From: a phage
Strand: one strand, 5' to 3'
Sequence record: PZ386969.1
DNA: 64,000 bases
The notes under the pieces are model-generated. The model was not told the DNA's origin. It did no database searches and saw only the letters and a list, made by a program, of their open reading frames with translations. A program made the position numbers and the translations under genes. The number at the start of each line of letters is the position of its first letter. Position 1 is the first letter of the stretch. Below, one piece after another: positions 15,254 to 61,852 of this stretch.

Positions 15254-15282
15254 ATATTAGGCGATTATTTCTTGAAAGTAAA
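15254..15282 (-). promoter_or_regulatory. early promoter C (-35 TTTACT, 17-nt spacer, -10 TAATAT)
   Basis: Minus strand ACTTTACTTTCAAGAAATAATCGCCTAATATTT upstream of the gene starting at 15222. Confidence 0.45.
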
Positions 15283-15292
15283 GTTATTGAAG

Positions 15293-15320
15293 TTAAAAAG
15301 CCCAGTACTTGACTGGGCTT
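15293..15320 (-). terminator. intrinsic terminator
   Basis: Minus strand AAGCCCAGTCAAGTACTGGGCTTTTTAA. Confidence 0.6.
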
Positions 15321-15337
15321 CTTGGTGTTCTATTGAC

Positions 15338-15652
15338 TTATTCGCCACTGGCATTCGGATCTCGATCGGGCTTGGCGTTCGGGAATAGAGACTCGTACAA
15401 GTCTTGATATTTCTCGCTCGTTTCGATCGTCTTATGGTAAGTTCCATTGGCGCGGTCGGATACAACCTTGCGCAGGTCGCTGGCCTTGATGCCCGTCTCT
15501 TTCGCCAGCTCGGCCAGAGTCTCAGTAATGAAAGTCTGTTCCGACTTGATGCGGACCTGGGCGGCACGACAGTTTTCAATCGCACCTATCAGCTTGCGAC
15601 GGGATTCAGGATCAGAAGGTAGTACATAAAAACCGATTTGTTCTACAGACAT
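15338..15652 (-). CDS. hypothetical protein
   Basis: 104-aa ORF with GAGGAA RBS, followed by an intrinsic terminator. Confidence 0.45.
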   Translation of the reverse strand: MSVEQIGFYVLPSDPESRRKLIGAIENCRAAQVRIKSEQTFITETLAELAKETGIKASDLRKVVSDRANGTYHKTIETSEKYQDLYESLFPNAKPDRDPNASGE

Positions 15653-15667
15653 TTGGTGTTCCTCTTG

Positions 15668-16003
15668 TTAGGATCTCATACCTTGTGGGATCAGATTAGT
15701 CCCGCAACGGCGTAAAAAGAAGTTTACGATGGAGTGATACTGGAACTTCGGGATGATCTCTACACCATCTTCCGTCGTATACCATTCCACTGTGTTAGTG
15801 CGCACTGGAAGGGGGAATGACGGCAGATCCAGCTGTACGAGTTCACCCTCTTGGCATATCATACCAATTCCATATTCCTCCCAGATTTTACGATTGTTGA
15901 AGAACTCCAGAGTCTGCTCCGGACTCAGCTCAATCGCTTGTTTGGTGTGGCACACCTGTTTGGCGGCCTGCACCAGGCCAGCCATAAAATCATTGTGTGA
16001 CAT
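15668..16003 (-). CDS. hypothetical protein
   Basis: 111-aa ORF with AGGAG RBS. Confidence 0.45.
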   Translation of the reverse strand: MSHNDFMAGLVQAAKQVCHTKQAIELSPEQTLEFFNNRKIWEEYGIGMICQEGELVQLDLPSFPLPVRTNTVEWYTTEDGVEIIPKFQYHSIVNFFLRRCGTNLIPQGMRS

Positions 16004-16067
16004 GATGTGCTCCTGGTTTACATTCAGATCATAGAATTATACCCTATGACCCGCTTTATTGAATTGC

Positions 16068-17492
16068 CTAGAATTTCCAATTATTGACTGTTTGGGCTTT
16101 CTGCTCATCGCTGGCAGCAGCCCCGGACTTGTTGAGGTCATGTTTGATGTGTACGTTTTCGACATATTTGGCCTCAGCCTCAGTCAGATCCTTCTTAACT
16201 TCGTTCCAGTCCAGGTCAAACAGGATCTGTTTGTCTTGGTCCATACCAAACAGGAATGACTTCAGCTTCTGCTTGTTGGCATAACGGTTCTTGAGTATTG
16301 AGGCTCGGGCTTTCTTGACCGCCGCCAGTTCGTCAGGAGCATAGAATGCCATGATGAAGTCGGCCACCTTCGGAATACCGATAGCATCTGCCAGATCACT
16401 GATTCCACCATCAGTGCTATTCTGATTCTCACGATTGAACTGCATACCAGTCCATACAGGGACATCAAACTCAAATCCCAGCGCACGAAACTCACGAGCC
16501 ACAGACGTGTAATAGACGTTCGTGTTCTGCATCAGGTGGGAAGGCAGGCGCGAGGAAGCAGCTTCGCCAAGATAGTCAATAACGATAACATCAGGAGCAC
16601 GACCTGTTGCCTGGATGTACTCAAGGATATCGCGGCGGAATAAACCCGTGTGTCCAGTACCAGAAGGATATTCCTTGATGACGATATCACCCTTGGGCGC
16701 ACCATCTTGGCGACTGCGGAGCTTCTCTATCGTTGCAATATACTCGTGCCTTGTGAGTTTCTCTAAAGACTCAAAGTCGCGACGCATGATACGGGCATCA
16801 AGACGGTGTCGCCAGACGTTCTCGGCCACTTCAAGGGTGAAGACAAAGACGTTCAGCCCCTGCTCCGAGTACCCTGCGGTCAGGTCAATCAGCGTTGTGG
16901 TCTTACCTGCGTTGATCGCACCTGTTACGATGTTCAGTGTCTTCTTACCAACGCCACCACGTGTCGCCTTATTGAAGATCTCAACTGCGAACGGGATCTT
17001 GGCCTCGTTGGAGTTCATGTGGTCATACTGCTCTGCCGCCATCTCCCAATAGATGTGGCCGAGGTATGAATCAAACCGGATAGCCAGGGCTTCCTGCAAC
17101 ATGGTCGGGATGTTGTTCATCTCGTCCTTGCGCTTCTCGTCACCGTAGATGTTGACGGCGGTCTTGATTGCGTTGTGTACGGCTTTTTGCCGCGCCCAAG
17201 CCTCGGTTTCCTTCGCCAGCCACTCTTCATTGAAGGTGTTGTCGTTGATGTTCTCCAGGGCAGTCACTGCCTGGTCAAACACATATTCGTTCAACTTTGT
17301 CCGTTCAAGAATGATAGATAGTGCTTCGACAGACGGGCGGGCATTGTACTCTGAGGTATAACTGTCAATCAGGCCAAAGATGACCTTTTCGCCTTCGTTG
17401 TCAAAATAATCGGCTTTCAGGTACGGCAGGATCTTTCTTTGGTAATCTTCATTGTAAATCAACTGTGAAAGCACGACAGATTCGAGTAACAT
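16068..17492 (-). CDS. DnaB-family replicative DNA helicase (T4 gp41-like)
   Basis: 474 aa; Walker A GAINAGKTT; DnaB-like C-terminal RecA fold; size matches T4 gp41 (475 aa). Confidence 0.85.
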   Translation of the reverse strand: MLLESVVLSQLIYNEDYQRKILPYLKADYFDNEGEKVIFGLIDSYTSEYNARPSVEALSIILERTKLNEYVFDQAVTALENINDNTFNEEWLAKETEAWARQKAVHNAIKTAVNIYGDEKRKDEMNNIPTMLQEALAIRFDSYLGHIYWEMAAEQYDHMNSNEAKIPFAVEIFNKATRGGVGKKTLNIVTGAINAGKTTTLIDLTAGYSEQGLNVFVFTLEVAENVWRHRLDARIMRRDFESLEKLTRHEYIATIEKLRSRQDGAPKGDIVIKEYPSGTGHTGLFRRDILEYIQATGRAPDVIVIDYLGEAASSRLPSHLMQNTNVYYTSVAREFRALGFEFDVPVWTGMQFNRENQNSTDGGISDLADAIGIPKVADFIMAFYAPDELAAVKKARASILKNRYANKQKLKSFLFGMDQDKQILFDLDWNEVKKDLTEAEAKYVENVHIKHDLNKSGAAASDEQKAQTVNNWKF

Positions 17493-17498
17493 TGGCCA

Positions 17499-17828
17499 CT
17501 ACCCCACCAAAAATTTATTATATTCCTGAGCATTACGCTGCATGAGGTCTACAAGGATATCCCCTGATACCTCAGTGAACAAGTCATTTTCTTTCAAATT
17601 CACAAACATCAGACGCAATGGTTTCTTCAATATATCAGTCACGAAAGACAGGCGGGGTTCGCCGTCCACTTCGTTAATAGCCACCTTGCCGAACCGGAAT
17701 TGAACACCACGGAATTTGCCAGAAGTGATCTTGATGATCGCCAGCTGATCAGCACCAGGGTCGATGATTGTGTAGTTATTGGGGGAGTCTCCTCCCCCTC
17801 CACTATTATTCGCTTGTGTTAATAACAT
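17499..17828 (-). CDS. hypothetical protein
   Basis: ORF 17499..17879; start tentatively moved to internal ATG (MLLTQANN); overlaps 3' end of the recombinase gene; Gly-rich N-terminus. Confidence 0.3.
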   Translation of the reverse strand: MLLTQANNSGGGGDSPNNYTIIDPGADQLAIIKITSGKFRGVQFRFGKVAINEVDGEPRLSFVTDILKKPLRLMFVNLKENDLFTEVSGDILVDLMQRNAQEYNKFLVG

Positions 17829-18891
17829 GGTCCATTTGCTCCAGCATGTTAGCAGGCATAACAGTACCGTTAGAAACACCGAACATTTTCTTCACGTCAT
17901 CGGCGAAGTTGACATTCTCCAGCAGCGGATACCAGAAATCATCACCCATCTGACGCTTCTGATATTTCTTTTCCTTCTCAGGATCGAAACCGCCCTTGGC
18001 TGTACGCACATACCAGCCGGAAGACGGCATATCAACATAACCCAGAGCACGAGCGATCTCAAGCAGGCCGCTCCAGCGATCAATACCACCGTTGTACAGT
18101 ACCGTGACAGGGAGCTTGGCTTTTTCTTTGACATGGCGGCCTTTCATGATGCTTATGTTGAAGTTCCAGCCCAGCAGATCTTTGTCTTCCTTCACCTGAG
18201 AACGGGTGATAAACCAGATCAAGTTGGAGGATAAGAAGCCCTGTTTGCCGCCTTTGATGTTAGGCTCGGCATATTGGTTGCCGATCTCATCGTAATAGGA
18301 GTTGATCCAAACACACACGAGATTTTTGCTGTTGATTTCGGGAGTCATGACACGCCAGAAGCTGTTGAGGGCACGGGCGCGGGTCATGTCTTGAGTGTCG
18401 TTCCCTTTGATCGCATCTTCAACTTCCTTGGTGGAGGGAAGTTGGCTGATAGAGTCGATGAAGATTATAACATGGTCGCCTTTCTTGACTTCCTGTAGGA
18501 TCTGTAGCAATCGGATCTTGGTCTGTTCAACGTTGTCGATCGGTACGTACAGGACGCGATCCATGTCAATGCCCATAGAGGTCCAGTAATCAGCGTTGGC
18601 ACCCTTTTCTGAGTCCGCAAAGACGCAGATAGCATCAGGGAACTTGTCCATGTACGCCTTGACGTCCACCAGACCGAACATCGTTTTGAAGGTACGGGAA
18701 TCACCCACCATCATCTTGATACCGGAGATCAGGCCGCCGTCAATACGCCCAGACCATGCGATGTCGATCAGGGGAATACCAGTAGAACAGATGATAGACG
18801 GTTCCAGAGCGTCTGATTGGGACAGCACTGAAGCCTGGTCATCGTGTTTCTTAGCAACCTTCAGCATGCGGTCCATTAATGAACTGGCCAT
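17806..18891 (-). CDS. uvsX: RecA-like recombinase (UvsX-like)
   Basis: 361 aa; RecA core with Walker A-like GDSRTFKT; AAGAGGAAG RBS. Confidence 0.8.
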   Translation of the reverse strand: MASSLMDRMLKVAKKHDDQASVLSQSDALEPSIICSTGIPLIDIAWSGRIDGGLISGIKMMVGDSRTFKTMFGLVDVKAYMDKFPDAICVFADSEKGANADYWTSMGIDMDRVLYVPIDNVEQTKIRLLQILQEVKKGDHVIIFIDSISQLPSTKEVEDAIKGNDTQDMTRARALNSFWRVMTPEINSKNLVCVWINSYYDEIGNQYAEPNIKGGKQGFLSSNLIWFITRSQVKEDKDLLGWNFNISIMKGRHVKEKAKLPVTVLYNGGIDRWSGLLEIARALGYVDMPSSGWYVRTAKGGFDPEKEKKYQKRQMGDDFWYPLLENVNFADDVKKMFGVSNGTVMPANMLEQMDHVINTSE

Positions 18892-19418
18892 TTCACTTCC
18901 TCTTTGTTGTTAATCGTCGTTAGTAAGTCTACACCCATAACCTTCTGGGACAAAATGTTAACCGCCTCTTGGATGCTCTTCAGGGACATTATCTCAACAA
19001 GTGACGATGCGTCATTATGCCGGTCGGTTAGGTACATATTGCGCAGATTGTTGTAGTTCGTGCGGTTGATGCACGCAGTGTTCAGTGCTATATTCAGGAT
19101 ATACATCATCTGTTCAATGGTTATATCCTTTGGCATAGCGTGGATGTAATAGATCGATCCTTCAAAATAGACGTCTACCAGTTCATCTGGTATCTTGATA
19201 CCACCACTGGCATACTCTTCGATCATTCTGAACAGAGACTCTGGTTGCTCGCTGGCGATCTTATGCGTAACAGTCGCCGAAAGACCGTCGCCCGGTTTAA
19301 CAGGCCTGTTGTATTCAGTAAGGAATACATTATGGCCGCCGCCGATGATGTGCTCGGCGAATTTGGAGGATGCCTGAGCAGCGTTCTCCGCATGGTATGA
19401 AACGACGACTGTAAACAT
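18876..19418 (-). CDS. hypothetical protein
   Basis: 180-aa ORF, last gene of the nucleotide operon, overlapping the recombinase start. Confidence 0.4.
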   Translation of the reverse strand: MFTVVVSYHAENAAQASSKFAEHIIGGGHNVFLTEYNRPVKPGDGLSATVTHKIASEQPESLFRMIEEYASGGIKIPDELVDVYFEGSIYYIHAMPKDITIEQMMYILNIALNTACINRTNYNNLRNMYLTDRHNDASSLVEIMSLKSIQEAVNILSQKVMGVDLLTTINNKEEVKWPVH

Positions 19419-19972
19419 TAGAACTCCAGGGTCAGAGGGGTTTCTGCGGACTTGTCGTAATCCGCGCCACCAGAAGCACGCAGACGATTGCGATCGTTCT
19501 TGCGTTTGTGCGCCAGCATGTAAGTCTCAATGTCGATCTCCATATAAGAACACGCAGACGACAGGAAGAACATGAGAGTCTCAACGCAAGGATCGTTCAT
19601 GAATTGCCCAAGGCGGTACGTAACATTGCGATGCCCTACAACACCCAAAGCAGATGGGGTGAATTCGCGATTACTGAGGACTTCAAATTCTTCTTCGATC
19701 TCACCTTTGGTTCGGTCCACAAGGATGAAGCACAACATGAAGTGTACCACGTCCACCAGTTCATAAACTGCGTTCGTATGGTCAAACCCGATGTCGTTGC
19801 CATAGACCTTCCAGTCACGGGTGGTTTCATCAAGGAACTCTGCCCACTCACGATAGATGGAGTTGATGACTGCGTTCTGACTCCATACATTCTTCCACTC
19901 TTCCCCAAAATAGGCCACGTTGGTGACCTTTTGGAGTTCGAGCAGGCTTTTGATATGTCCTGCTGTGATCAT
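19418..19972 (-). CDS. all-alpha NTP pyrophosphatase (dimeric dUTPase/MazG-like)
   Basis: Acidic helical motifs (EEWKNVW, EFLDETTRDW, ELVDVVHF) resembling dimeric dUTPase-like pyrophosphatases; ATGA coupling to the upstream kinase. Confidence 0.45.
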   Translation of the reverse strand: MITAGHIKSLLELQKVTNVAYFGEEWKNVWSQNAVINSIYREWAEFLDETTRDWKVYGNDIGFDHTNAVYELVDVVHFMLCFILVDRTKGEIEEEFEVLSNREFTPSALGVVGHRNVTYRLGQFMNDPCVETLMFFLSSACSYMEIDIETYMLAHKRKNDRNRLRASGGADYDKSAETPLTLEF

Positions 19973-20538
19973 TTACGTTCTCCGTAGAATTTAACGAACG
20001 GTTCCCAACCATCAAATGGATTGAGGAATTCGTAGTCCACTTTCATTTGGTCAATGAAAGCCTCTATATCGTCCTCTATGATACCAGCACGGTCGGCCTT
20101 TGAAATACGGGTGATAGGACATTTCGTACTCAGCGCCCATTCATATTCCTGAGGGGTACGCAGATCGCTCACGATATAATGGACGTGGGGGTTCTGCTCT
20201 ACCAGAGGAAGCTGGAAGCGCTTGAAGAATGCCAGGAACAGATCGGGTTGTACGTAACGCAAGCCCGTATCGCTGCCTAGATGAAGCCAGATCTGCCGTG
20301 GAGTTAAGCCCTTGGGGTTATCAGGGTGCACGTAAGGAACGTCCTTCACGGCATCCTCTACCTCCGCTGGGAGCCATGGGTAGATGTAGTTGGCCACACG
20401 GCGCAGTTCATCTGAGAACGAAAGGCGCTGGATGTCCATATCACCCTGTAGTTGGTGATAGCTGATGAGGGACTCCAAACAGAAGTCCTTACCGGAGCGT
20501 TTGCGCCCCGTAAAGAATTCAAGATTTGGGTACATCAT
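19969..20538 (-). CDS. deoxynucleoside monophosphate kinase (T4 gp1-like)
   Basis: N-terminal P-loop FTGRKRSGKD closely matches T4 gp1 (GVKRSGKD); 189 aa; GGAAGG RBS. Confidence 0.7.
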   Translation of the reverse strand: MMYPNLEFFTGRKRSGKDFCLESLISYHQLQGDMDIQRLSFSDELRRVANYIYPWLPAEVEDAVKDVPYVHPDNPKGLTPRQIWLHLGSDTGLRYVQPDLFLAFFKRFQLPLVEQNPHVHYIVSDLRTPQEYEWALSTKCPITRISKADRAGIIEDDIEAFIDQMKVDYEFLNPFDGWEPFVKFYGERK

Positions 20539-22240: not shown

Positions 22241-22249
22241 AAACTGCTC

Positions 22250-22285
22250 CAATAAACAAAAGGAGCTGCTATTATAGCAGCCCCT
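22250..22285 (-). terminator. intrinsic terminator
   Basis: Minus strand GGGGCTGCTATAATAGCAGCTCC followed by TTTTGTTTATT. Confidence 0.55.
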
Positions 22286-22314
22286 TCATCTTTTGAACAG
22301 TTTCTGAACTTAAA

Positions 22315-23154: not shown

Positions 23155-23224
23155 AATAAAAACCCTTTCGTTATTAAGACCGTATCCGCGGCATATTGTT
23201 GTTCTGACTGTGTAGTGAGAACAT

Positions 23225-23252
23225 AATATACTGCATTTTCATAGATGTAAAC
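23225..23252 (-). promoter_or_regulatory. early promoter E (-35 GTTTAC, 16-nt spacer, -10 TATATT)
   Basis: Minus strand AAAGTAGTTTACATCTATGAAAATGCAGTATATT upstream of the gene starting at 23154. Confidence 0.45.
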
Positions 23253-23343
23253 TACTTTTTATTGAAAAGAAAGTTAACACCTTAGTGTTATAAGGTGCGC
23301 GACCAAGCGGAGCGCGAACTTGCGTGAATATTAACTTTCTACG

Positions 23344-24389: not shown

Positions 24390-24452
24390 GTTATAGCCTC
24401 ATTGTTGAAGGATTACCCGTTCACGAATTATCCCTCGGAACAGGTTATAGAA

Positions 24453-25157: not shown

Positions 25158-25168
25158 TTGTCAACTCC

Positions 25169-25176
25169 TATAAATA
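25169..25176 (+). promoter_or_regulatory. T4-type late promoter box TATAAATA
   Basis: Exact TATAAATA about 35 nt upstream of the GTG start at 25211. Confidence 0.5.
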
Positions 25177-25210
25177 ATAACAGTTATTTTATTTAAGTGG
25201 AGTCCTCACC

Positions 25211-26155
25211 GTGGAAGACTATCGCAATTTTATCACACAGATATTACAGCGGGGCTTGTCGCGCAAGAACCGCTTCAGAGTGACCATCCCTCTACCACCA
25301 GGGATCTTTGACTCCAATGCCACTCTGGCTAATGACGGAAAGGCGTACAGAACCAATTCATCTTTCGGTGACTTGTTTAAGCAGTCAGCCCGTATTGTAA
25401 ACGCTTTCTTTGGAGGGACAAACCAGACGTCCCGTTCCCTTCAGATGATGTGTATGGTTGCCTCATTGCCAGGGGTTGGTATCGACACCACTCCAATGAC
25501 AAGCAACGGTAATCACATCAAGATGCCGAACAACAAGTCCAACGTCGACCTCGACTTGTCATTCTTATTAGCCAATGACTATTATGAGAAGTCTGTGATG
25601 GACAAGTGGAAGAGTCTGATCTTTGATCCACACACCACCAAAATGGGATATTACGAAGACTTCGTGACTGACATATGCATTGAACAGCTTGACACCGAAG
25701 ATCAAGTGGTCCACCGCGTCTACATCGTCGAGGCTCACCCAATAAATTTCAGTTCTATTGAGCTGGATAAAGGTGCCACAGACCAGTTCAACCAGTACAA
25801 CATTTCTTTCTCTTACAACAAAGTGCTTTCGGAGACAGAATATGAAACACGCAGCCTTTCCAGCGATTTTCTTCCTCTCGGTATTGCTGACGCTCTTACC
25901 AGTGGTGACTGGGAAACTGCGGCCTCAAAAGCCGGACAGCTTTATCGCAAGGTGAAAGAAGGGAACTTCACAGGAGAGGCTCTCCTGGCTTACAAACAGC
26001 TTGACCAACTTGTAAACAACCTGGCTGGGATAAGCATACAGGACTTCGAGCGCATCTCGGTAGGTATCTCTCGTGACATCATGGGCAACGATAACCTGAC
26101 GGCGGCGGAGAAGACAAGCCTGTTGGGGATATTGAAAGACGTGATGGGAAAATAA
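25211..26155 (+). CDS. late protein, probably virion structural
   Basis: GTG start preceded by GGAG; exact TATAAATA box about 35 nt upstream; 314 aa. Confidence 0.45.
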   Translation: MEDYRNFITQILQRGLSRKNRFRVTIPLPPGIFDSNATLANDGKAYRTNSSFGDLFKQSARIVNAFFGGTNQTSRSLQMMCMVASLPGVGIDTTPMTSNGNHIKMPNNKSNVDLDLSFLLANDYYEKSVMDKWKSLIFDPHTTKMGYYEDFVTDICIEQLDTEDQVVHRVYIVEAHPINFSSIELDKGATDQFNQYNISFSYNKVLSETEYETRSLSSDFLPLGIADALTSGDWETAASKAGQLYRKVKEGNFTGEALLAYKQLDQLVNNLAGISIQDFERISVGISRDIMGNDNLTAAEKTSLLGILKDVMGK

Positions 26156-27193: not shown

Positions 27194-27291
27194 TTCTTAA
27201 TTTCCTCTGTTTCCGCCCCTCAGGGCTATTCTGTTACATGTATTTCAGTTTGCTACAAAGCGGGGTAATTATACCCCGATCTTACATTGAA

Positions 27292-28961: not shown

Positions 28962-29453
28962 TTAACGGGTGATGATTTTGCTATCAGGTAGGATCAGACC
29001 AGGGTGGTCCAGGTTCTTCTGCATCTGTTGGATACTCTGCAGGATCACGGTAGTGTCGATGTGGCGTTTCACTTTGCGCGCTTCATCACCGTAGGAGATC
29101 TGTCCCTGAGGATCGATGTAGTGGGCTGTCACAACCTGCAGATCATAACCACACTTGATCAGGTACTTAGCAATGTTGCTAACTTCGAGAGACAGGGACT
29201 CACCGTCCACACCGATGTTGGCTGAGTAGACGATTACGCCATTTTCTACTGCTTTTGGTTCAAACAAAACCATACCAGCGATCGTCTGGATCAAAGGAAC
29301 TCCCTCTGTATCGAAAGCCACCTGATCGAACGCACCGATGAACTCATCCGGCACTTTACCTTCGGCATCAGAAACTGTGTGTTTCATAAGGTCCAGGACG
29401 TGTTGTTGTACTTCCTCAATCGGAGCACGTTCAACGGGTTTTTCGTTTTGCAT
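28962..29453 (-). CDS. hypothetical protein
   Basis: ORF 28962..29564; start moved to internal ATG (MQNEKPV) preceded by GGAGAAAAG. Confidence 0.4.
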   Translation of the reverse strand: MQNEKPVERAPIEEVQQHVLDLMKHTVSDAEGKVPDEFIGAFDQVAFDTEGVPLIQTIAGMVLFEPKAVENGVIVYSANIGVDGESLSLEVSNIAKYLIKCGYDLQVVTAHYIDPQGQISYGDEARKVKRHIDTTVILQSIQQMQKNLDHPGLILPDSKIITR

Positions 29454-29955
29454 TACTTTTCTCCAGTTCATAATCGCGCTCCACAACGTATTGGTAGACA
29501 CGCATCTTAATATAGTCAGCACTGCCTGCTGAAGACAGCACCATCCATCCACTACTAAGGGCATTCATCTTATATTGACCAACACCCTCTTGAAAATAAC
29601 TTTTAATCTGTTCCAGCTTTCGCACACGATGATAATACGAGATGAGTTCGCCGATGACAATACAATCTGGATAATGCTTTTCCAATGTATTGATGTTGCG
29701 GTGAACATATACGGGTAGAACTTCTTCATCGTCGATAGGGCTGTAGTATGGGTCTACAATGACCACTTGTAGACCATAACGCAGCAGGTCTTTGACACCC
29801 AGCCGACAGAACTTATAATCTTCGTGTTTCATTGCCACATGGAGGATATTCTCTTTCTTGGCATAATCAGTCAGGAAGATAAAGAAGTCTGTGTTGGGAT
29901 CGGGATATTGTATAGACAGTTCTTTGCCTATTTCACTAAAACAAAATCCGCGCAT
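29431..29955 (-). CDS. hypothetical protein
   Basis: Start at second ATG (MRGFCFSE) with GAGGAA RBS. Confidence 0.4.
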   Translation of the reverse strand: MRGFCFSEIGKELSIQYPDPNTDFFIFLTDYAKKENILHVAMKHEDYKFCRLGVKDLLRYGLQVVIVDPYYSPIDDEEVLPVYVHRNINTLEKHYPDCIVIGELISYYHRVRKLEQIKSYFQEGVGQYKMNALSSGWMVLSSAGSADYIKMRVYQYVVERDYELEKSNAKRKTR

Positions 29956-33740: not shown

Positions 33741-34202
33741 CTACTCCGCCAGGGTGATCACAACCATATTTAAGACTGTGTCGATAGCTCGGCCTGTTTC
33801 CTCTTCATGGAGGGTTTCGGCGCGGAGGTGCACGTCGGTGATGAAATTGTCGATGTGCATTGACGTCAGATACGGGCGGTGTTGACTGACCGGGCGGTTG
33901 ACCAGAACATAATTGCGCAATGTGTTGAAGTCCTGATGAGAGCACCCCGTTGTATCGATACGAAGGAAGCGTTCGTTGTGGCTTGTCTTCAACTCAGTCA
34001 CCTTGCCGAGGTAGACCAGAGGTCCATTGCGACCGATACGGAACATGACATCAACAACAGACTTGAAGATTTCGCGTTCAATCAGTGCGGTGGGTGACCA
34101 GCAGATCTCTTCTTTGTCGTCGGCGTACAGGGTGTCGATCACCAGAGGGAGTTGAATGTAACCGAAGTTGTGCAGTGGGTTGGTGAGTACTTTGTTTGTC
34201 AT
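33741..34202 (-). CDS. hypothetical protein
   Basis: ATG preceded by AAGGAACTATATC (conserved start context); 153 aa. Confidence 0.45.
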   Translation of the reverse strand: MTNKVLTNPLHNFGYIQLPLVIDTLYADDKEEICWSPTALIEREIFKSVVDVMFRIGRNGPLVYLGKVTELKTSHNERFLRIDTTGCSHQDFNTLRNYVLVNRPVSQHRPYLTSMHIDNFITDVHLRAETLHEEETGRAIDTVLNMVVITLAE

Positions 34203-34213
34203 GATATAGTTCC

Positions 34214-34453
34214 TTATTTCACATATTCAAGGGCTTTGGTCAGACCAAAGCGAAGACGTTCACGAGCAACCTTCAATTCTTCTCGGTCTTTACCTTGACC
34301 GTTGTTGTCGTGATTCATAATGATTTCGTGGTTGACCACGGCGCGGAGGGTTCTGAGTTCACCTATCCAATATGCCTTGTTAGCAGCACAGCCGCGTTTG
34401 GCTGTCATGGCGTGGTATTTCATTGAGGTGTCGTAGACTTCAGAGTCGGTCAT
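34214..34453 (-). CDS. hypothetical protein
   Basis: ORF track start is TTG; start at ATG (MTDSEVY) preceded by AGCAGGAACTATATC; early promoter upstream. Confidence 0.45.
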   Translation of the reverse strand: MTDSEVYDTSMKYHAMTAKRGCAANKAYWIGELRTLRAVVNHEIIMNHDNNGQGKDREELKVARERLRFGLTKALEYVK

Positions 34454-34504
34454 GATATAGTTCCTGCTGTTCAATTTGTGGCGAATGCCAATGAATTACT
34501 GGGA

Positions 34505-34533
34505 AGTATAAGCGCAGGGATTATAGAAGTAAA
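34505..34533 (-). promoter_or_regulatory. early promoter A (-35 TTTACT, 17-nt spacer, -10 TATACT)
   Basis: Minus strand reads GCTTTACTTCTATAATCCCTGCGCTTATACTTC about 45 nt upstream of the ATG at 34453; -35 overlaps the upstream terminator tail. Confidence 0.5.
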
Positions 34534-34557
34534 GCCCCTCAATGAGGGGCTTTGGCT
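34533..34557 (-). terminator. intrinsic terminator (after glutaredoxin gene)
   Basis: Minus strand AAGCCCCTCATTGAGGGGCTTTACTT. Confidence 0.6.
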
Positions 34558-34559
34558 TG

Positions 34560-34784
34560 TCAGCGTTTAAGGCTGGCGGCGAGTCCATTAACGTCGGTCA
34601 CGGTCTGGTCAGCGAGGACGATTACAGGCATCGACACGCGCGGCTTACCCGTCAACTGCTGAAGTTCTTCCAGCCGGTAATCTTTGTCCAGCTTGAGGAT
34701 CTTGTGTTCCAGCCCTTTCATTTTGCACAGATTTTCGGCTGTTACACACTGAGCGCAACCTTGTTTGGAATAGATCGTAATCAT
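34560..34784 (-). CDS. glutaredoxin-like protein (NrdH/glutaredoxin family)
   Basis: MITIYSKQGCAQC: CxxC redox motif in thioredoxin-fold context; 74 aa; directly downstream of nrdB. Confidence 0.7.
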   Translation of the reverse strand: MITIYSKQGCAQCVTAENLCKMKGLEHKILKLDKDYRLEELQQLTGKPRVSMPVIVLADQTVTDVNGLAASLKR

Positions 34785-38544: not shown

Positions 38545-38626
38545 GGTGTTCCTCGGGTTTGTTTACGCAGGTTTATTATACGCCGCCCTCGTAGATTGAA
38601 GGCGGCGGGGAGGGTTGGTGAGTTAC

Positions 38627-39469: not shown

Positions 39470-39571
39470 GGGAACCTTCCTATATCTCAGGGTGTCATCA
39501 CCTCTAATTAAGGTGACAACCCCAGCATACCTGAGGATTGGATAAAGAAAAGGCCGTTTCCGGCCTTTGAG

Positions 39572-40537: not shown

Positions 40538-41026
40538 TTAGGCTAGTTTGCTCACCAGATCTTCAACTGCGTCGGCGCTCAGTTTACCCATTTTGACGTA
40601 CTGAGCTTTTGCTTCGCCGCCAGCAGCTTTCACGATGTCGGTGTTGTCGTATCCCTTCTTAGGGAAGACCATCACAGAGAAGGAACCGTTGTTCAGTGGG
40701 TTCAGCTGGATGCGACCTTTACCGACTACGATGGTGCCGTAAGTTTCGGTCTTTGCTTCGACAATGTGAATGTCGTGGCCCAGGCTTTTCAGCATACCAA
40801 CTTTGTCGGCAGTCTTAGCAACCACAGCTTTATCAACCACAACCTGCTCTACCAGGGTGAAGCCGTTAGTCGCTTTCACTTTACCGTTCAGCAGGTTCAT
40901 GAAGGAAGTTTTGCCACCAGTGAAGCCAGCTGCCTGAGCGATGCGGAACATTTCAACTTTAGCAACTTCGGTGTTCAGTTCGAAAGAGATGGTGCCGTTG
41001 GTGATCAGAGTTTTGGTAGTAGCCAT
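40538..41026 (-). CDS. hypothetical protein (strong early promoter)
   Basis: ORF 40538..41137; start moved to ATG (MATTKTL) with GAGGAA RBS; strong early promoter with A/T-rich upstream element. Confidence 0.45.
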   Translation of the reverse strand: MATTKTLITNGTISFELNTEVAKVEMFRIAQAAGFTGGKTSFMNLLNGKVKATNGFTLVEQVVVDKAVVAKTADKVGMLKSLGHDIHIVEAKTETYGTIVVGKGRIQLNPLNNGSFSVMVFPKKGYDNTDIVKAAGGEAKAQYVKMGKLSADAVEDLVSKLA

Positions 41027-41098: not shown

Positions 41099-41165
41099 AT
41101 AATAGTGCGCTATTATTGAATAGTAAAGTCTTTTCAATAAATTTTTAAAATATTTTTGAAATATT
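41099..41165 (-). promoter_or_regulatory. early promoter D with A/T-rich upstream element
   Basis: Minus strand GACTTTACT-17 nt-TATTAT, preceded by an A/T-rich run (TTAAAATATTTCAAAAATATTTTAAAAATTTATTG); drives the gene starting at 41026. Confidence 0.45.
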
Positions 41166-41220
41166 TTAAAAAGACCTCATTCGACGAGGCCTGGAGGGAA
41201 GTAATGTGAAGTAAAAAGTT

Positions 41221-43461: not shown

Positions 43462-43485
43462 CTTAATCTCCTCGGGGATTTCAGT

Positions 43486-43493
43486 TATTTATA
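43486..43493 (-). promoter_or_regulatory. T4-type late promoter box TATAAATA
   Basis: Minus strand CTTATAAATAAC directly after the terminator hairpin and about 25-30 nt upstream of the ATG at 43461. Confidence 0.5.
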
Positions 43494-43517
43494 AGCCCCC
43501 GAAGGGGCTTTCAATGA

Positions 43518-46961: not shown

Positions 46962-46990
46962 AGTATAGGGAAGGATATTGAAGAAGTAAA
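46962..46990 (-). promoter_or_regulatory. early promoter B (-35 TTTACT, 17-nt spacer, -10 TATACT)
   Basis: Minus strand CCTTTACTTCTTCAATATCCTTCCCTATACTTC; same architecture and near-identical downstream leader as promoter A. Confidence 0.5.
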
Positions 46991-47010
46991 GGGGCGAAAG
47001 CCCCTTTTAT
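46988..47010 (-). terminator. intrinsic terminator
   Basis: Minus strand AAAAGGGGCTTTCGCCCCTTTACTT. Confidence 0.6.
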
Positions 47011-56505: not shown

Positions 56506-56554
56506 CTCTTTGCCATGCCCTGTATTGCAGAGCCTGGCCGCGCGTCAGATAGAA

Positions 56555-56833: not shown

Positions 56834-56923
56834 CTGGATTTCTCCGTTGGGTTAATGTTTACTTTCATGTTCACTACAAGAGGACTACAGTTTAACTAAC
56901 AAATTTTATTGAATAAAGCGGAA

Positions 56924-57175
56924 TTAATAGCCTTTCGCCACGTCTTCAGTCGTCATCGTGCCATAACATCCACAGCGTTCACAAATCACTCTGACGCAAG
57001 GCTTAAAAGTCTGAATATTAGTCACAGGAACGTTCACCACCTTTGAAGAAACCTGCATTTCGCGGACTTCAACCCGTTGTTCGGCCAGGCGCTCATCGTC
57101 CAAGAAGGTGATCGTCTTGTGAGGACAACGCATTGACGATTCACCAACCCAGATTATTGCCATGTTGGGACTCAT
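56924..57175 (-). CDS. small Cys-containing protein (possible zinc finger)
   Basis: 83 aa with RCPHK...CVRVICERCGC. Confidence 0.4.
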   Translation of the reverse strand: MSPNMAIIWVGESSMRCPHKTITFLDDERLAEQRVEVREMQVSSKVVNVPVTNIQTFKPCVRVICERCGCYGTMTTEDVAKGY

Positions 57176-57468
57176 GATTTGACCTCCGATTTGGAGATTA
57201 ACGATTCCATCTCCTGACGACCAATGACAGTCTCAACTTTGTCTTCTTCAACCATCATTTCATTCAGAAGATCGTACCCCAGGACTTGTACACCAAAAGA
57301 CTTTTTGTTCAGTTCTGCCTCAATATTGAGAACTCGCTGAACCGTCAGGCCACCGGAAGAGAACGGTACTGGATAGAAGGCGGAACGCACTTGGACACAC
57401 CCATTTACGCTGTAACGAACCAGCAAGACATCACACCATACACCAGCCATATTATACCTCCACCGCAT
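57172..57468 (-). CDS. hypothetical protein
   Basis: 98-aa ORF overlapping neighbours at both ends. Confidence 0.4.
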   Translation of the reverse strand: MRWRYNMAGVWCDVLLVRYSVNGCVQVRSAFYPVPFSSGGLTVQRVLNIEAELNKKSFGVQVLGYDLLNEMMVEEDKVETVIGRQEMESLISKSEVKS

Positions 57469-58114
57469 GAGACTTCAGGAGTTCATCAATCTCTTTCTGT
57501 CCCATGTATGAGAACGGGGTGCGCTGGTAGAACGCCCAGAGTACTAACTGGACAACAGCACGGGAACGGGTTTCGGCCGTCATCACCAGGCCACTGAAAT
57601 GAGGAGACTCAGCTGTCCATTGTATCTCTTCGCCCAGGTCTTGATTACAGGTCACCGAGATGCGGAACTTGTTGCACAGATTGTCGACTTCTTTGTACGC
57701 ATCGGTAGACACACGAAGTTGTTCCGCATGTGCCCACGGAGTTGTGACGATTCTTTCACCCATCACTTTATCAGAGATAAACCAATCAATACATTCGGTA
57801 AACTCACTAAAATGGTCGATACGATAAATGCAGTCTCCCCCTTCCATAGAACGCATGGCATGATAGCGAGCGTCGATTTCGTTGTTGTGCATAGCGTTGA
57901 AGTCGATGAACACGCGACGCGCCAGCACAACATCTTCTGGTTGAAGTGCCAGGAAATCGTTCAGGCGGCTATAATGGAGGATATTGGAACCGTCGTGGTC
58001 ACGTGTGCAATATGCGTAATGGCTACCGATACGGGCGTGGGCAATATAAGACAACGGGGCGAAGAATAATCCGTCAGGATCAGGACCGACGATAATAGAA
58101 TAAAGTTTTTCCAT
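57452..58114 (-). CDS. hypothetical protein
   Basis: ORF track start is TTG; start at ATG (MEKLYSI) preceded by GAGAGACTATATC. Confidence 0.45.
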   Translation of the reverse strand: MEKLYSIIVGPDPDGLFFAPLSYIAHARIGSHYAYCTRDHDGSNILHYSRLNDFLALQPEDVVLARRVFIDFNAMHNNEIDARYHAMRSMEGGDCIYRIDHFSEFTECIDWFISDKVMGERIVTTPWAHAEQLRVSTDAYKEVDNLCNKFRISVTCNQDLGEEIQWTAESPHFSGLVMTAETRSRAVVQLVLWAFYQRTPFSYMGQKEIDELLKSHAVEV

Positions 58115-58170
58115 GATATAGTCTCTCAAATGAAAGGGCAGCTTTATGATAAGCCGCCCGAGGTTATTGA

Positions 58171-59040
58171 TTATTGGAAATCGCCAACATACATGTTCAG
58201 CTTGTCATCCCAATTCAGAACGACACGGATCGTTCCAGTATCTTCTGGGAAGGTCAGTTTGTCACACATGGCGCGATTAACATAAGTCCCACTCTGGTTC
58301 ACGTTGTAGTCCTTGCCTTGCATGATACCAAAACGCTTGAAGTCGCGAGTGACCATCATGTTCAGAGTTGTCCAAGGGATTGCATCGCGCAGGGCTTTGC
58401 ACAGGACGATCTTGCCATCCGACCTGAACGACACAAACAGCTCGTTGGCGACACGACGGCGAGTAGGCGGTTCAAGTTCACGCAGGGAAATGAATTGTGA
58501 ATTCTTTACCTTTTCTGCCAGCGTCTGTACTTCTGCTGGATCCGGCTTGAACGGCTCCACTGAAGAGTCAGACTTCATCACAACGTCACCCTTGCGCTTC
58601 TCGACCAATTGCTCCACAGCCTTTTGACTCACGGGTGGGAGGTATTTGGACTCAGGAACAACCGCTGGCTTGATGACAGGGCTTGCATCTGGTTTCGCCT
58701 TTGGGGTACTCCGAGCCGCACGCAGCTTTTCCTGGGCTTCCAGAATGCGCTCTTGACGAGAAAGCGGAGCCTTTGGGGTGATCTTCGTACTGAAGTCAGA
58801 AACTCCGACCCAGTCACCCTGGTCATTACGCTTGGCGACCAGAGTCAGTTTGTGGATGATACCCTGAAGTTTGCTCTCACGCAAGTTGTCGGCATACCAG
58901 AACTTCGCGCCCATCTCGAACTTCTCGGCGAAGATCACGCGAGCGTCTTCGTGTACCAACATAACTTTGGCTGCGTTGGGGGCAAAAGCCTTATTCTTTT
59001 CGATAATCGCCGCAGCGATTGTTTTGGTCAGGAGCATCAC
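58171..59040 (-). CDS. hypothetical protein
   Basis: 289 aa; two globular parts joined by a Pro/Lys-rich linker. Confidence 0.45.
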   Translation of the reverse strand: MMLLTKTIAAAIIEKNKAFAPNAAKVMLVHEDARVIFAEKFEMGAKFWYADNLRESKLQGIIHKLTLVAKRNDQGDWVGVSDFSTKITPKAPLSRQERILEAQEKLRAARSTPKAKPDASPVIKPAVVPESKYLPPVSQKAVEQLVEKRKGDVVMKSDSSVEPFKPDPAEVQTLAEKVKNSQFISLRELEPPTRRRVANELFVSFRSDGKIVLCKALRDAIPWTTLNMMVTRDFKRFGIMQGKDYNVNQSGTYVNRAMCDKLTFPEDTGTIRVVLNWDDKLNMYVGDFQ

Positions 59041-59076
59041 AGTGTATTCCTTCAGTTCACAATGTAGGGCTAAATT

Positions 59077-59403
59077 TTAACCCGAAACTTTATTTTGAAA
59101 TCCGACAAAGTCCTGGGCAATCCCCCGGCAATACATCAGGTCTTTCTTCGTTTGTGGACTGTTATCAGCCGCAGTCAGCATCATGGGAAGATCCAGCGCA
59201 TTCTCTATCTGATCAACACTGAACAGATCAAGGCGCTTCAGCTCTCCCTCGAAGTCAGACAGTAGGATAGATGTGTCTTTGTCATCTGGGTGGAACTGCT
59301 GATACGTCTCCATCCACGCCACACATGTGTTCAGTTTGGACGGTGGCGCGGCGTTTACACACCCGGCTATCAGTACCAACAAGAGCAGGATTTTACATTT
59401 CAT
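59077..59403 (-). CDS. lipoprotein (outer-membrane-type signal, lipobox LIAGC)
   Basis: ORF track start is GTG; ATG start; MKCKILLLLVLIAGCVNA signal with lipobox Cys; one-base overlap with the upstream stop. Confidence 0.5.
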   Translation of the reverse strand: MKCKILLLLVLIAGCVNAAPPSKLNTCVAWMETYQQFHPDDKDTSILLSDFEGELKRLDLFSVDQIENALDLPMMLTAADNSPQTKKDLMYCRGIAQDFVGFQNKVSG

Positions 59404-60089
59404 CACTCGTTCTCCTTCATCATATTGTCGCAGTCAACACGAGTCTGCTGGAGTTCGCGCGACATGCGAGGATCATCAAGGTTCACGCTCAGATTCGTGG
59501 CCAGGTCTTTCAGACCGTTCTGAACCCTGTCTTCAAAGTAATAATCGTTCTCCACCAACCATGCCCTGAGGCCGAGGGCGCGGGTGCGCCATTCCTTCTT
59601 CAGGACGCGATCAGAGGTCTGCGTGGCGCTGTATTCGAATACTTTGACGCACTGGTTGCCATCGTTGATGAGGTTCAGGTGACGGCGGCCTATCTGCACA
59701 CCCTTCTGTAATGCCGGAGAAGGGAGCGAACGGCACTGTCTTACGGTCATTCGGCCTTGGGTGCCCATACGCCCAGTCATGATCAAATCGCCAGCCTCCA
59801 TGCCTCCACGGTTAAATTCGTCGTCATTGAGGTAGCCCTTGAGGTTATAGGCTCCCTGTTTGTAACGGTTGAACTCAATTCCGGCATTGACGACAGCAGT
59901 GGAGACGTTGCCTGTGTTCCAGAGTTCAGCGAAGTTCTCTATGGAACCAGACTTGTCGATGGCAACCGCCTGGGAGAACCCAGCACAATAGGAAAGGTCG
60001 GACCACAGTTTATCACCTGTGGAGTTCAGCTTGGCAGCGGCGGGTAATGCCAGACCAGCCAGCACAACCCCGAGGATTAAACGTTTCAT
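59403..60089 (-). CDS. secreted/periplasmic protein (signal peptide)
   Basis: ORF 59403..60254; start moved to ATG (MKRLILGVVLAGLALPAAA) with GGAGAA RBS; Sec-type signal peptide. Confidence 0.45.
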   Translation of the reverse strand: MKRLILGVVLAGLALPAAAKLNSTGDKLWSDLSYCAGFSQAVAIDKSGSIENFAELWNTGNVSTAVVNAGIEFNRYKQGAYNLKGYLNDDEFNRGGMEAGDLIMTGRMGTQGRMTVRQCRSLPSPALQKGVQIGRRHLNLINDGNQCVKVFEYSATQTSDRVLKKEWRTRALGLRAWLVENDYYFEDRVQNGLKDLATNLSVNLDDPRMSRELQQTRVDCDNMMKENE

Positions 60090-60168
60090 GGTGATTCTCC
60101 TTATTTCATTGGATGAAATGATAGGCGGCTCACCATGATGAGTAAAGGGTTTCAATAAACTATCGTAT

Positions 60169-60618
60169 TCAGAAACGGGTATCGCTGACCGTTCTGTATC
60201 GCACACCCTGAAACTGTTTAGCGAGTTTAACAAATTCCATCGCTGGCAAATCAACTTTGTAGACCTTCATGCGCTGTTTGCCGTCCATGTTCAACGCAGC
60301 GACAAATCGGTGAGAACCGTCAACAACGTAATTGTCAGAAGACACCCAAACTCGACCCATAGGTTTCTTATTTCTGATCTGCTTCATAATCTTCCAGACC
60401 TTCATTTTATTGATTTCGTTCTGGGTAAGACGAAGCATTTTGATGGGCACTTGCACAGCATCTATGGACACGCCGTTGTCTTCAAGATATTTGTGAAAAT
60501 CTTCTTGTTTGTCGGCATCGATTTGCGGCATAGAAGAACGCGAAAGCCCGAGGTTCCCAACAGGGATCCTCAGGCCGTTAATGATGTTCAACCAGTCAAT
60601 AAAGGATGTAAGGAACAT
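60169..60618 (-). CDS. ParB/sulfiredoxin-fold nuclease-like domain protein
   Basis: Segment YVVDGSHRFVAA resembles the ParB-like nuclease DGxHR core; 149 aa. Confidence 0.4.
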   Translation of the reverse strand: MFLTSFIDWLNIINGLRIPVGNLGLSRSSMPQIDADKQEDFHKYLEDNGVSIDAVQVPIKMLRLTQNEINKMKVWKIMKQIRNKKPMGRVWVSSDNYVVDGSHRFVAALNMDGKQRMKVYKVDLPAMEFVKLAKQFQGVRYRTVSDTRF

Positions 60619-60650
60619 GACACACCTCGGGATATAGGGTTATCCCTTAG

Positions 60651-60842
60651 TTAGCGCATCCATCGATCCTTTCTCTCTTTCTCCTTGCGTTCGCGACGTT
60701 TCTGGTCGGATCGGAATAACCAATAGAAGAAGTTCCCACCCAAGATGAAAACCACCGCGATTATTACTAGGACACCCTTCACAATTTCCCAAACCAATTC
60801 TTTATCCAAATTATACCTCGTCTTCTTCAGGTCTACCGTCAA
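60651..60842 (-). CDS. small membrane protein
   Basis: TM helix VLVIIAVVFILGGNFFYWLF followed by a highly basic tail. Confidence 0.35.
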   Translation of the reverse strand: MTVDLKKTRYNLDKELVWEIVKGVLVIIAVVFILGGNFFYWLFRSDQKRRERKEKERKDRWMR

Positions 60843-61098
60843 TCAGGATACGAGCAGTGTCGAAACCTTCCCCGCCCGTGTTCAACAGCTTGGTCAGATC
60901 ATCAAGAGTATAGACAGGACCAAGATCAGCCTGGCGAAGAACGAACTCGAGAAGCCCGTAGAGCGCCGATTGGAATCGGGAGTTGTCGATGTCGTTCTTG
61001 ACTTCCATCAGGCGGACAACATTGGCAGACTGGACATAACTCAGCTGAGTCTTACCTTTCACCATGACTTTCACGGAACGGCGTTGTTCAGGCGTCAT
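60811..61098 (-). CDS. hypothetical protein
   Basis: 95-aa ORF overlapping neighbours at both ends. Confidence 0.35.
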   Translation of the reverse strand: MTPEQRRSVKVMVKGKTQLSYVQSANVVRLMEVKNDIDNSRFQSALYGLLEFVLRQADLGPVYTLDDLTKLLNTGGEGFDTARILIDGRPEEDEV

Positions 61099-61473
61099 AA
61101 TGTTCCACCCCCGACAGAGATCAAGAACTCTTCTTGCATGGTCTTGACCGGGTGGTGGTTGCGGGTTTCGAACATGAAGCCCCAGCCACCGTCGGCGACG
61201 TTGCCAAAGGTCTTGACACCAAAGGACTTCGTCCCGTTGGAGCAGGAATAGATGTCCAGGACGTATGGGCTACCCTGATTGTCGATCCCACGATTCACGT
61301 CGTCTGATACGCAGCGCTCAATCATCTTCCCGTTCTTATACAGAACGAGGTCTTGACCATACGCCTTGAAAGCATAAACACCGTTGGTAGACACCCCAGT
61401 GATGACAGGAGGGGCGGAAACAGCAGCAAAGGAAGCTCCCAGCAGGGCAACAGCGAGGATTAACTTTTTCATG
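61095..61473 (-). CDS. secreted protein (signal peptide)
   Basis: ORF 61095..61517; start moved to ATG (MKKLILAVALLGASFAAVSA) preceded by AGAGACTATATC. Confidence 0.45.
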
Positions 61474-61531
61474 ATATAGTCTCTTGGTTTCAAATGGGCG
61501 GGGTAATCATACCCCACCCAAAGTTATAGAA

Positions 61532-61771
61532 TTAACTGATGTGCTTCAGAAGAGCGAAGAGGATCGCGGCCTTGGCCTTTACCTTTCCCACGATGCCTGT
61601 CTCGACATCAACTTCTTCAGCAACCCACTCCTTTCCCTTCTTGCTGATGATCACGTCACGGCGCTGGGCATATACCTCTTTGGTCGCATACACGCGGCGG
61701 AATCCTTTGGCGCGGAGCAAGCCCCAATTACGATCAATTTCTACTGAGGTTTCTACCATTTTGTTCTTCAT
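61532..61771 (-). CDS. hypothetical protein
   Basis: 79-aa basic protein; ATG preceded by AGATTATATC; early promoter upstream. Confidence 0.4.
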   Translation of the reverse strand: MKNKMVETSVEIDRNWGLLRAKGFRRVYATKEVYAQRRDVIISKKGKEWVAEEVDVETGIVGKVKAKAAILFALLKHIS

Positions 61772-61822
61772 GATATAATCTTACCTTTCAACCCGGTGAA
61801 CCCATCGTTCGCCAGTTATTGA

Positions 61823-61852
61823 ATAATACGCATTTACCTTATAGAAGTAAAC
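61823..61852 (-). promoter_or_regulatory. early promoter F (-35 GTTTAC, about 18-nt spacer, -10 TATTAT)
   Basis: Minus strand GGGGTTTACTTCTATAAGGTAAATGCGTATTAT directly after the terminator of the ACP-like gene. Confidence 0.4.

Follow-up and report, generated by a model that had tools for sequence, protein, structure and literature searches.

The window analysed here is a stretch of 64,000 nucleotides (nt) of phage DNA from sequence record PZ386969.1, with about 49% G+C, and our subject is a family of promoter-like cassettes in the short gaps between its genes. The window shares 96-98% identity with Escherichia phage vB_EcoM-ZQ1 (ZQ1; MW650886; Ackermannviridae, Aglimvirinae), where it corresponds to positions 45,086-109,837, and about 92% with Shigella phage AG3 (Agtrevirus); by these similarities its source appears to be an Agtrevirus-like member of the ViI-like phages (Ackermannviridae). 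From 9 kb on, the genes lie mostly on the minus strand and include those for DNA replication and nucleotide metabolism, gp55/gp33 and many small open reading frames (ORFs). In a gene map made by transferring ZQ1 proteins and adding extra ORFs, intergenic DNA makes up 8.6% of the window, and all seven of the sites described below fall within it.

Transcription in the Ackermannviridae, phages that are widely used in biocontrol, phage typing and reporter-phage engineering, is essentially unstudied. The CBA120 genome paper (Kutter et al. 2011) reported that informatics could not identify early promoters and called the pre-late promoters of ViI-like phages "still-unidentified", and consensus-based searching gave only eight promoters in the AG3 and CBA120 genome papers. 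The LIMEstone1 paper (Adriaenssens et al. 2012, PMC3296691) put forward only five early promoters, the words promoter and transcription are absent from a 2024 review of the family, which counts 174 complete genomes, and the ZQ1 record has no promoter annotation at all.

Seven sites with a uniform spacing

Both strands of the window were scanned with the regular expression [GC]TTTAC-N15-19-TAnnnT, which matched seven sites on the minus strand, with 5' coordinates 61852, 60147, 46991, 41128, 34534, 23252 and 15283 (Table 1), and two on the plus strand, at 40717 and 16016. The first-pass annotation had described a family of six early promoters, and its range of 15254-61852 runs exactly from the -10 of site 15283 to the -35 of site 61852; all six stand, but the count is seven, the likely overlooked member being 60147 with its -10 of TATCAT. 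Their placement on the minus strand between genes was borne out at every site by the scan and the gene map, each site being oriented toward the next gene, as was the two-box architecture. The spacer, first given as 16-18 nt, proved instead to be uniform, with 18 nt (N18) between (G/C)TTTAC and TAnnnT at 7/7 sites when the -10 of 23252 is taken as TATTAT (23223-23228). Counted from TTTACW this is a 17-nt spacer, and the pattern can be equated with TTTACW-N17-TAYWAT. Another 27-73 nt separate the end of the -10 from the downstream ATG, which has a Shine-Dalgarno sequence ahead of it at all seven sites. As for the plus-strand matches, 40717 is within coding sequence, while 16016 is in the intergenic gap 16004-16067 and oriented against the flanking minus-strand genes; the latter match (16016-16045) we hold to be coincidental, as it is the reverse complement of an element of a second class (class B, described below) and faces away from genes.

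The regular expression is one of low information, and it might be argued that the sites are chance matches picked post hoc. The behaviour of a generic sigma-70 scan is in keeping with that argument: its match totals were not above those of shuffled sequence (34 vs 25.8±5.6; 15 vs 19.8±4.5; 12 vs 9.2±2.9), so promoter-like strings are common, and for the same reason generic TTGACA/TATAAT scanning was dropped as a definition of the family. All but one of the seven sites were independently flagged by the generic scan, as TTTAC(T/A)-17-TATnnT with 9-10 of 12 matches. Chance is nevertheless a very improbable account, refuted by enrichment, intergenic placement and the conservation of orthologues. 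Measured against 300 Markov-simulated sequences, the seven matches to the loose pattern compare with 0.9-1.15 expected per strand and exceed all 300 simulations (maximum 6), and the six matches to a stricter TATnnT pattern compare with 0.14-0.27 expected (maximum 3). All seven lie, correctly oriented, in the small intergenic share of the window, and their orthologous positions are conserved across genera.

A genome-wide motif search, run on complete ZQ1, yielded 11 good T4-type sites, every one of them between genes and on the minus strand; three ZQ1 sites other than the seven have N17 spacing. Relaxing the TTTAC box by one mismatch in intergenic DNA added only two weak candidates, 56889-56917 (CTTTAT-N18-TAAACT, conserved) and 39524-39551, which were left uncounted. 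As a positive control, the same N18 expression was applied to T4 positions 1-30,000 and 145,000-168,903 (54 kb), where it retrieved 18 sites from the transcribed strand and a single one from the opposite strand, with the look GTTTAC(A/T)…(A/G)TGG TA(C/T)(T/A)AT. The earlier description of the -35 box as that of T4 early promoters thus holds: the identical expression retrieves the T4 promoters, and the geometry is the published one, with GTTTAC at -36 to -31, the -10 at -12 to -7 (i.e., N18) and, ahead of both, A-rich DNA resembling an UP element (Nolan et al. 2006, PMC1524935, which summarises the sources Liebig & Rüger 1989 and Miller et al. 2003).

Table 1. Promoter-like features, in window coordinates unless a genome is named (aa, amino acids; UTR, untranslated region).
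Feature	Span (strand)	-35 box	-10 box	Hairpin and adjacent DNA	Downstream start	Predicted transcript start (near)	Relatives
Cassette 1	61823..61884 (-)	GTTTAC 61847-61852	TATTAT 61823-61828	terminator hairpin CCCAACAAACGTTGGG, 61869-61884, then T-run	ATG 61771 (79-aa ORF)	61816	kept in ZQ1, AG3, LIMEstone1
Cassette 2	60118..60147 (-)	CTTTAC 60142-60147	TATCAT 60118-60123	no terminator	ATG 60089 (228-aa secreted protein; gene upstream of Rz-like spanin gene)	60111	boxes and N18 retained in 5/5 comparison genomes; Magnus spacer rewritten
Cassette 3	46962..47007 (-)	CTTTAC 46986-46991	TATACT 46962-46967	hairpin AAAGGGGCTTTCGCCCCTTT, 46988-47007, overlapping -35	ATG 46913 (111-aa ORF)	46955	kept in ZQ1, LIMEstone1, Magnus; absent in AG3; promoter and 5'UTR copies also at ZQ1 125091 and 135820
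Cassette 4	41099..41192 (-)	CTTTAC 41123-41128	TATTAT 41099-41104	terminator hairpin 41172-41192 and T-run, then 90% A+T stretch resembling UP element	ATG 41026 (162-aa ORF)	41092	nearly invariant in 5/5 comparison genomes; AG3 Table S2, different register, as Porf100
Cassette 5	34505..34553 (-)	CTTTAC 34529-34534	TATACT 34505-34510	hairpin AAAGCCCCTCATTGAGGGGCTTT, 34531-34553, overlapping -35; conserved 5'UTR and GGAACTATATCATG	ATG 34453 (79-aa ORF)	34498	present in 224 phage records, all names typical of Ackermannviridae
Cassette 6	23223..23298 (-)	GTTTAC 23247-23252	TATTAT 23223-23228, or TATATT 23225-23230	weak hairpin 23277-23298; AT-rich tract	ATG 23154 (278-aa ORF, first of nucleotide-metabolism block)	23216	kept in 5/5 comparison genomes; AG3 Table S2 as Porf069
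Cassette 7	15254..15320 (-)	CTTTAC 15278-15283	TAATAT 15254-15259	terminator hairpin AAGCCCAGTCAAGTACTGGGCTT, 15298-15320, and T-run	ATG 15222 or 15210 (~400-aa ORF)	15247	kept in ZQ1, AG3, LIMEstone1; degenerate in Vi01
Second-class element	11834-11860 (-)						
Second-class element	13490-13515 (-)						
Second-class element	16036-16063 (-)						
Second-class element	22271-22297 (-)						
Second-class element	24427-24452 (-)						
Second-class element	27268-27291 (-)						
Second-class element	38575-38600 (-)						
Second-class element	56889-56913 (-)						
Second-class element	58146-58171 (-)						
Second-class element	61506-61531 (-)						
LIMEstone1 "putative middle promoter"	HE600015 27794-27818						overlaps T4-type cassette orthologue
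LIMEstone1 "putative middle promoter"	HE600015 55428-55450						overlaps T4-type cassette orthologue
LIMEstone1 "putative middle promoter"	HE600015 61690-61712						overlaps T4-type cassette orthologue

Conservation in related phages and the middle-promoter alternative

Syntenic regions were taken from the Aglimvirinae phages ZQ1, AG3 and LIMEstone1 (Limestonevirus), the Cvivirinae phage Vi01 (Kuttervirus) and the phage Magnus (Taipeivirus), and the orthologue of each downstream gene was found by tblastn. The motif, meaning both boxes and their spacing, was retained in 28 of the 32 orthologous upstream regions of these five genomes. The remaining regions are accounted for by a cassette deletion in AG3, a changed gene context in both Vi01 and Magnus, and a single degenerate Vi01 site. 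In unconstrained alignments of the upstream regions, the two hexamers and the distance between them are conserved blocks that flank a variable spacer. Divergence among orthologous sites was 23% in the spacer vs 5.6% at the three -10 positions left free by the regular expression, figures that are partly constrained because the expression itself picked the sites, and the unconstrained alignments are for that reason the primary evidence. At 34534, for example, CTTTAC and TATACT are invariant in the five genomes and the spacer is TTCTATAATCCCTGCGCT, TTTTGAAACCTTCCCGCC, TTTTGAAACACCCTCCCC or TTCTATAATTCCCGCATT, with about 10 of its 18 positions differing in Vi01 and AG3. No switch between G and C at -36 occurs between orthologues. 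The seven cassettes are genuine and conserved, and are almost certainly promoters.

Two of the seven had been recognised in LIMEstone1, whose record (HE600015; PMC3296691) has "putative early promoter" features at the orthologues of 23252 and 61852, based on similarity to T4 and with a GTTTAC -35 and a TATTAT or TATACT -10; a third such site is outside the window. Independent annotators, then, reached the same early-promoter reading for two orthologues. The CTTTAC members fared differently there, being either labelled "middle" in shifted registers or given no annotation, without statistics or conservation analysis: the orthologues of 15283, 41128 and 46991 are each a "putative middle promoter" with a 3-nt CTT as the -35.

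Those labels favour an alternative in which the sites are middle-mode, activator-dependent promoters, where a phage factor redirects the host polymerase as MotA/AsiA do in T4, and there is more to recommend it, as several downstream genes are not obvious takeover genes, the -35 is sub-consensus and unaccompanied by an extended -10, and a TTC(A/T)ATAA-like sequence occurs in several spacers. We nonetheless think it unlikely, and rejected the LIMEstone1 middle-promoter reading because neither a Mot box nor MotA/AsiA was found. The T4 Mot box, (a/t)(a/t)(a/t)TGCTT(t/c)A, is centred at -30, 11-13 nt from the -10 (PMC1524935), and its TGCTT is in none of the seven spacers. Single-sequence phmmer searches, of limited sensitivity, with T4 MotA, AsiA, MotB, ModA and Srd against six-frame ZQ1 gave no match at E<=10, and Kutter et al. 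report no MotA, AsiA or MotB in ViI-like phages. The LIMEstone1 "middle" calls are made in different registers with nothing more than CTT as the -35, and the -10 given for ORF084 (TACGAC) is downstream of TATACT, the one that is conserved. Window sites carry a correctly spaced -35-like hexamer, whereas T4 middle promoters have none. The TTCTATAA or TTCAATAA box in the spacer was rejected as a required promoter part, because the spacer is unconserved between orthologues (TTCTATAAGG vs TTCCTCTAAG vs TTCTTCAATA at 61852; TTCTATAATC vs TTTTGAAACC at 34534) and the distance of this box to the -10 differs between the two promoter classes.

Terminator-promoter cassettes of a probable T4 early type

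GC-rich hairpins with T-runs were found 0-40 nt upstream of five of the seven sites, 61852, 46991, 41128, 34534 and 15283 (local free energy, dG, -10.9 to -19.1 kcal/mol), in agreement with the first-pass view of these loci as terminator-promoter cassettes; the hairpin is weak at 23252, and 60147 has none. The CTTTAC box of 46991 and of 34534 overlaps the hairpin's 3' arm and T-tract, so that terminator and promoter share bases, and the proximal upstream position is taken by the GC-rich hairpin. Over the 30 nt preceding the box, six of the sites have an A+T content of 63-90% and 34534 one of 40%; the genome figure is about 51%. The cassette-bearing gaps measure 79-194 bp, and a module (G)GAAC/TTAT/CATCATG is common to five of the seven cassettes.

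Two observations concern the starts of the genes themselves. A translation-initiation module, (G)GA(A/G)(A/C)CTATATCATG(A), recurs ahead of many genes with both cassette classes (e.g., 61771, 61472, 58114, 46913, 34453 and 34202) and is the 16-nt repeat that bounds one of the indels described below. At 15205-15225 (-) the ~400-aa gene has two in-frame ATGs, of which the conserved ACATCATG context favours 15222; the ZQ1 annotation uses 15210.

The arrangement has a close parallel in the promoter-early stem-loop (PeSL) cassettes of T4-like phages (Arbiol et al. 2010, PMC2839356; Comeau et al. 2014, PMC4122927), which are described only in Straboviridae (T4, PST, RB49/phi1 and KVP40/nt-1) and whose promoter, terminator and mini-circle activity has been demonstrated experimentally only for RB49/phi1. 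The T4/PST consensus is the same TTTACW-N17-TAYWAT (PMC4122927), and, as in a PeSL, a stem-loop just upstream of a sigma-70-like promoter is joined in one intergenic module to an AT-rich region and a 3' Shine-Dalgarno sequence and start codon, the five clear hairpins and one weak one for the seven promoters being in the T4/PST PeSL position. A PeSL is a cassette of about 100 bp that fills an intergenic gap, and the window gaps are comparable; PeSLs and the window cassettes alike are dispersed repeats, with indel breakpoints between close relatives inside them and chimeric cassettes left behind. One difference is that copies are fewer here, about 11 per genome. The searched literature contained no paper linking PeSLs to the Ackermannviridae. 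The promoter type and the cassette concept are known from T4-like phages, the elements of the window were partly anticipated by the LIMEstone1 annotation, and the gain here is incremental.

Three indels between the window and ZQ1 have their breakpoints inside promoter/hairpin cassettes. In the first (window 61765-61900 vs ZQ1 107245-107740), ZQ1 has, at 107303 and 107659, two complete tandem copies of the 61852 cassette around a 74-aa ORF, and the window has one chimeric cassette whose spacer is that of the ZQ1 upstream copy and which from the -10 onward is the downstream copy. In the second (window 34170-34570 vs ZQ1 78990-79135), the 79-aa ORF that follows the 34534 cassette, with GGAACTATATCATGAC on both sides, is absent in ZQ1, AG3 and LIMEstone1 and present in Vi01. 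In the third (window 61465-61570 vs ZQ1 106385-107050), a ZQ1 ORF of about 190 aa sits between two second-class hairpin cassettes, and the window retains one chimeric copy at 61473-61531. The 74-aa and ~190-aa ORFs are unannotated in MW650886. Such cassette-bounded indels have the appearance of PeSL-like modular shuffling and suggest how Ackermannviridae exchange small accessory ORFs.

Breakpoints inside dispersed repeats, promoter-plus-leader copies at three ZQ1 loci, and a CTTTAC that is the hairpin tail at 46991 and 34534 would also suit another explanation, namely that these are mainly recombination or terminator modules, conserved for hairpin/T-tract function and through repeat homogenisation, with the boxes incidental. 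It is compatible with promoter function, as PeSLs do both, and as a substitute for it we judge it quite unlikely. Site 60147 is hairpin-free, yet its boxes are kept in five of five genomes; the hairpin of 41128 stops 40 nt short of the -35; and the -10 and the exact 18-nt distance are conserved while the intervening sequence is not, although a terminator or a repeat needs neither.

The reading we prefer, and consider likely, is that the seven sites are phage promoters of the T4 early type set in intergenic cassettes. They resemble T4 early promoters in the TTTAC(A/T) box, the 18 nt to TAnnnT, the A/T-rich upstream DNA of six of the sites and their position ahead of many small ORFs of unknown function. 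They differ from them at -36, where T4 has a near-invariant G (18/18 minus-strand control sites) and the window has C at five of the seven sites and G at two, and just before the -10, where T4 has mostly (A/G)TGG or TGA and the window has GCG, GCC, CCC, CAC, GCT, GTA or GCC. Other differences lie in the phages: Alt and ModA tune the T4 early promoters, and ViI-like phages are without both; the window has 49% G+C with thymidine hypermodification, as against 35% G+C with glucosyl-hmC in T4. Compared with the Escherichia coli sigma-70 promoter (TTGACA-N17-TATAAT), the hexamers are likewise 17 nt apart, TTTACT matching at 4/6 positions and TATACT or TATTAT at 5/6, and they differ in a T for G at position 3 of the -35, common to all family members.

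In the working model, a full cassette would run, 5' to 3', from a stop codon through a terminator or attenuator hairpin with its T-tract, an A+T-rich stretch, the -35 (G/C)TTTAC(T/A), a 17-nt spacer counted from TTTACW, the -10 TAYWAT and a 27-73 nt leader to a conserved Shine-Dalgarno/start module ending in …GGAACTATATCATG. The host sigma-70 RNA polymerase would read TTTACW as a 4/6 match to TTGACA at the optimal distance from the -10 and would start about 7 nt past the -10 (Table 1), with transcription active from the moment that DNA enters the cell. "Early" accordingly denotes, as far as the architecture indicates, immediate use by unmodified host sigma-70 holoenzyme after infection: a properly spaced -35-like hexamer should permit direct recognition by host sigma-70, and hence early use. 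The upstream hairpin would stop or attenuate read-through from the preceding unit, so that each cassette could re-set transcription for the following gene, and, being dispersed repeats, the cassettes may also act as points of homologous recombination at which small ORFs are gained or lost, as with the PeSLs of T4-like phages. A conserved promoter set with predicted starts would offer targets for 5'-end mapping and for engineering (insertion sites, expression timing).

Several points weigh on the other side. The -35 of the window sites is without the G of TTGACA and a TG-type extended -10 is present at none of the seven, which makes it doubtful how strongly unmodified host polymerase would use them. 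Position -33 of T4 promoters is a T that has been tied to Alt-modified polymerase (PMC1524935), and ViI-like phages are without Alt, ModA, MotA and AsiA (Kutter et al. 2011). About 40% of the thymidines of ViI-type virions are 5-NeOmdU, which could alter recognition of a T-rich box. With a poor T-tract (UUUACUU) at 46991 and at 34534, the hairpins of these two sites may do no more than attenuate. The searched literature yielded neither transcript 5' ends nor results from in vitro transcription or reporters for any Ackermannviridae phage. Lastly, a scan of the whole ZQ1 genome found no T4-type (G/C)TTTAC promoter on the plus strand, and so none for the plus-strand block with rIIA/B, topoisomerase and DNA polymerase; the T4-type class is consequently not the whole early programme, and makes up just one portion of a larger collection of promoter/hairpin cassettes.

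A second promoter-like class and other signals

When all intergenic regions were printed, a second class became apparent, in which a TTC(A/T)AT(AA) box is followed after 12-16 nt (mode 14) by a TATAAT-like hexamer. In most members a GC-rich hairpin holds this -10 in its loop or at its edge (e.g., GGGGTATAATTACCCC ahead of gp32, or GGGGCTGCTATAATAGCAGCTCC followed by TTTT). Ten members are in the window, all on the minus strand (Table 1), and about 17-18 in ZQ1, on both strands; the sequence TTCAATAA occurs 28 times in ZQ1, 23 of these fully intergenic. Second-class elements precede gp32, nrdA, DNA ligase, the hmdU-kinase/td block and rIIA, and also the orf058 homologue (15668-16003) directly downstream of gp41. 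The class is conserved across genera with compensatory changes in the stem, from GGTCATAG/CTATGATC to GGTCGTAG/CTACGATC and from CGCCGCC/GGCGGCG to CGTCGCC/GGCGACG.

Stem-loops that lie between the boxes or over the -10 are known from the PeSLs of RB49/phi1, but the RB49/phi1 promoters are near-consensus with N17, whereas the box-to -10 distance here is short. That geometry is like that of T4 Mot-box promoters, with the difference that no MotA/AsiA was found in ZQ1. Of the two classes this is the more puzzling, and if its members are promoters they would imply an unrecognised activator or sigma-remodelling factor, or structure-dependent initiation. No published source was found for a consensus of TTCAATAA-N14-TATAAT, which was not used, and the searched literature held nothing relevant on experimental start sites, on transcriptomes (Ackermannviridae, Kuttervirus, CBA120) or on TTCAATAA as a named motif. 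It is possible, and we put it forward tentatively, that the T4-type sites (about 11 per genome, on one strand) and the larger second class together form a genome-wide cassette system that supplies the pre-late promoters of ViI-like phages, both of them PeSL-like recombination modules outside the Straboviridae.

The ZQ1 plus-strand block (about 12.7-48.3 kb; window 1-9012 (+)) encodes DNA polymerase, rIIA/B, topoisomerase and dCMP deaminase, and the plus-strand intergenic sites of ZQ1 are of the TTCAAT-box/hairpin class, as upstream of rIIA at ZQ1 30555. A perfect sigma-70 sequence, TTGACA-16-TATAAT (12/12), is at 29792-29819 (+), inside the minus-strand coding sequence 29431-29955 and roughly 335 nt ahead of the baseplate gene gp26; some 0.02 chance matches are expected in the window, and hexamers and spacing are kept in ZQ1, AG3 and LIMEstone1 (where local identity is only 76%). 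The T4 late-promoter octamer, TATAAATA, has exact intergenic copies at 43462-43517 (-), after the hairpin GCCCCttcgGGGGC and upstream of the 994-aa ORF, and at 25158-25453 (+), ahead of the baseplate gene gp54; in complete ZQ1 its exact copies number only six, four of them between genes.

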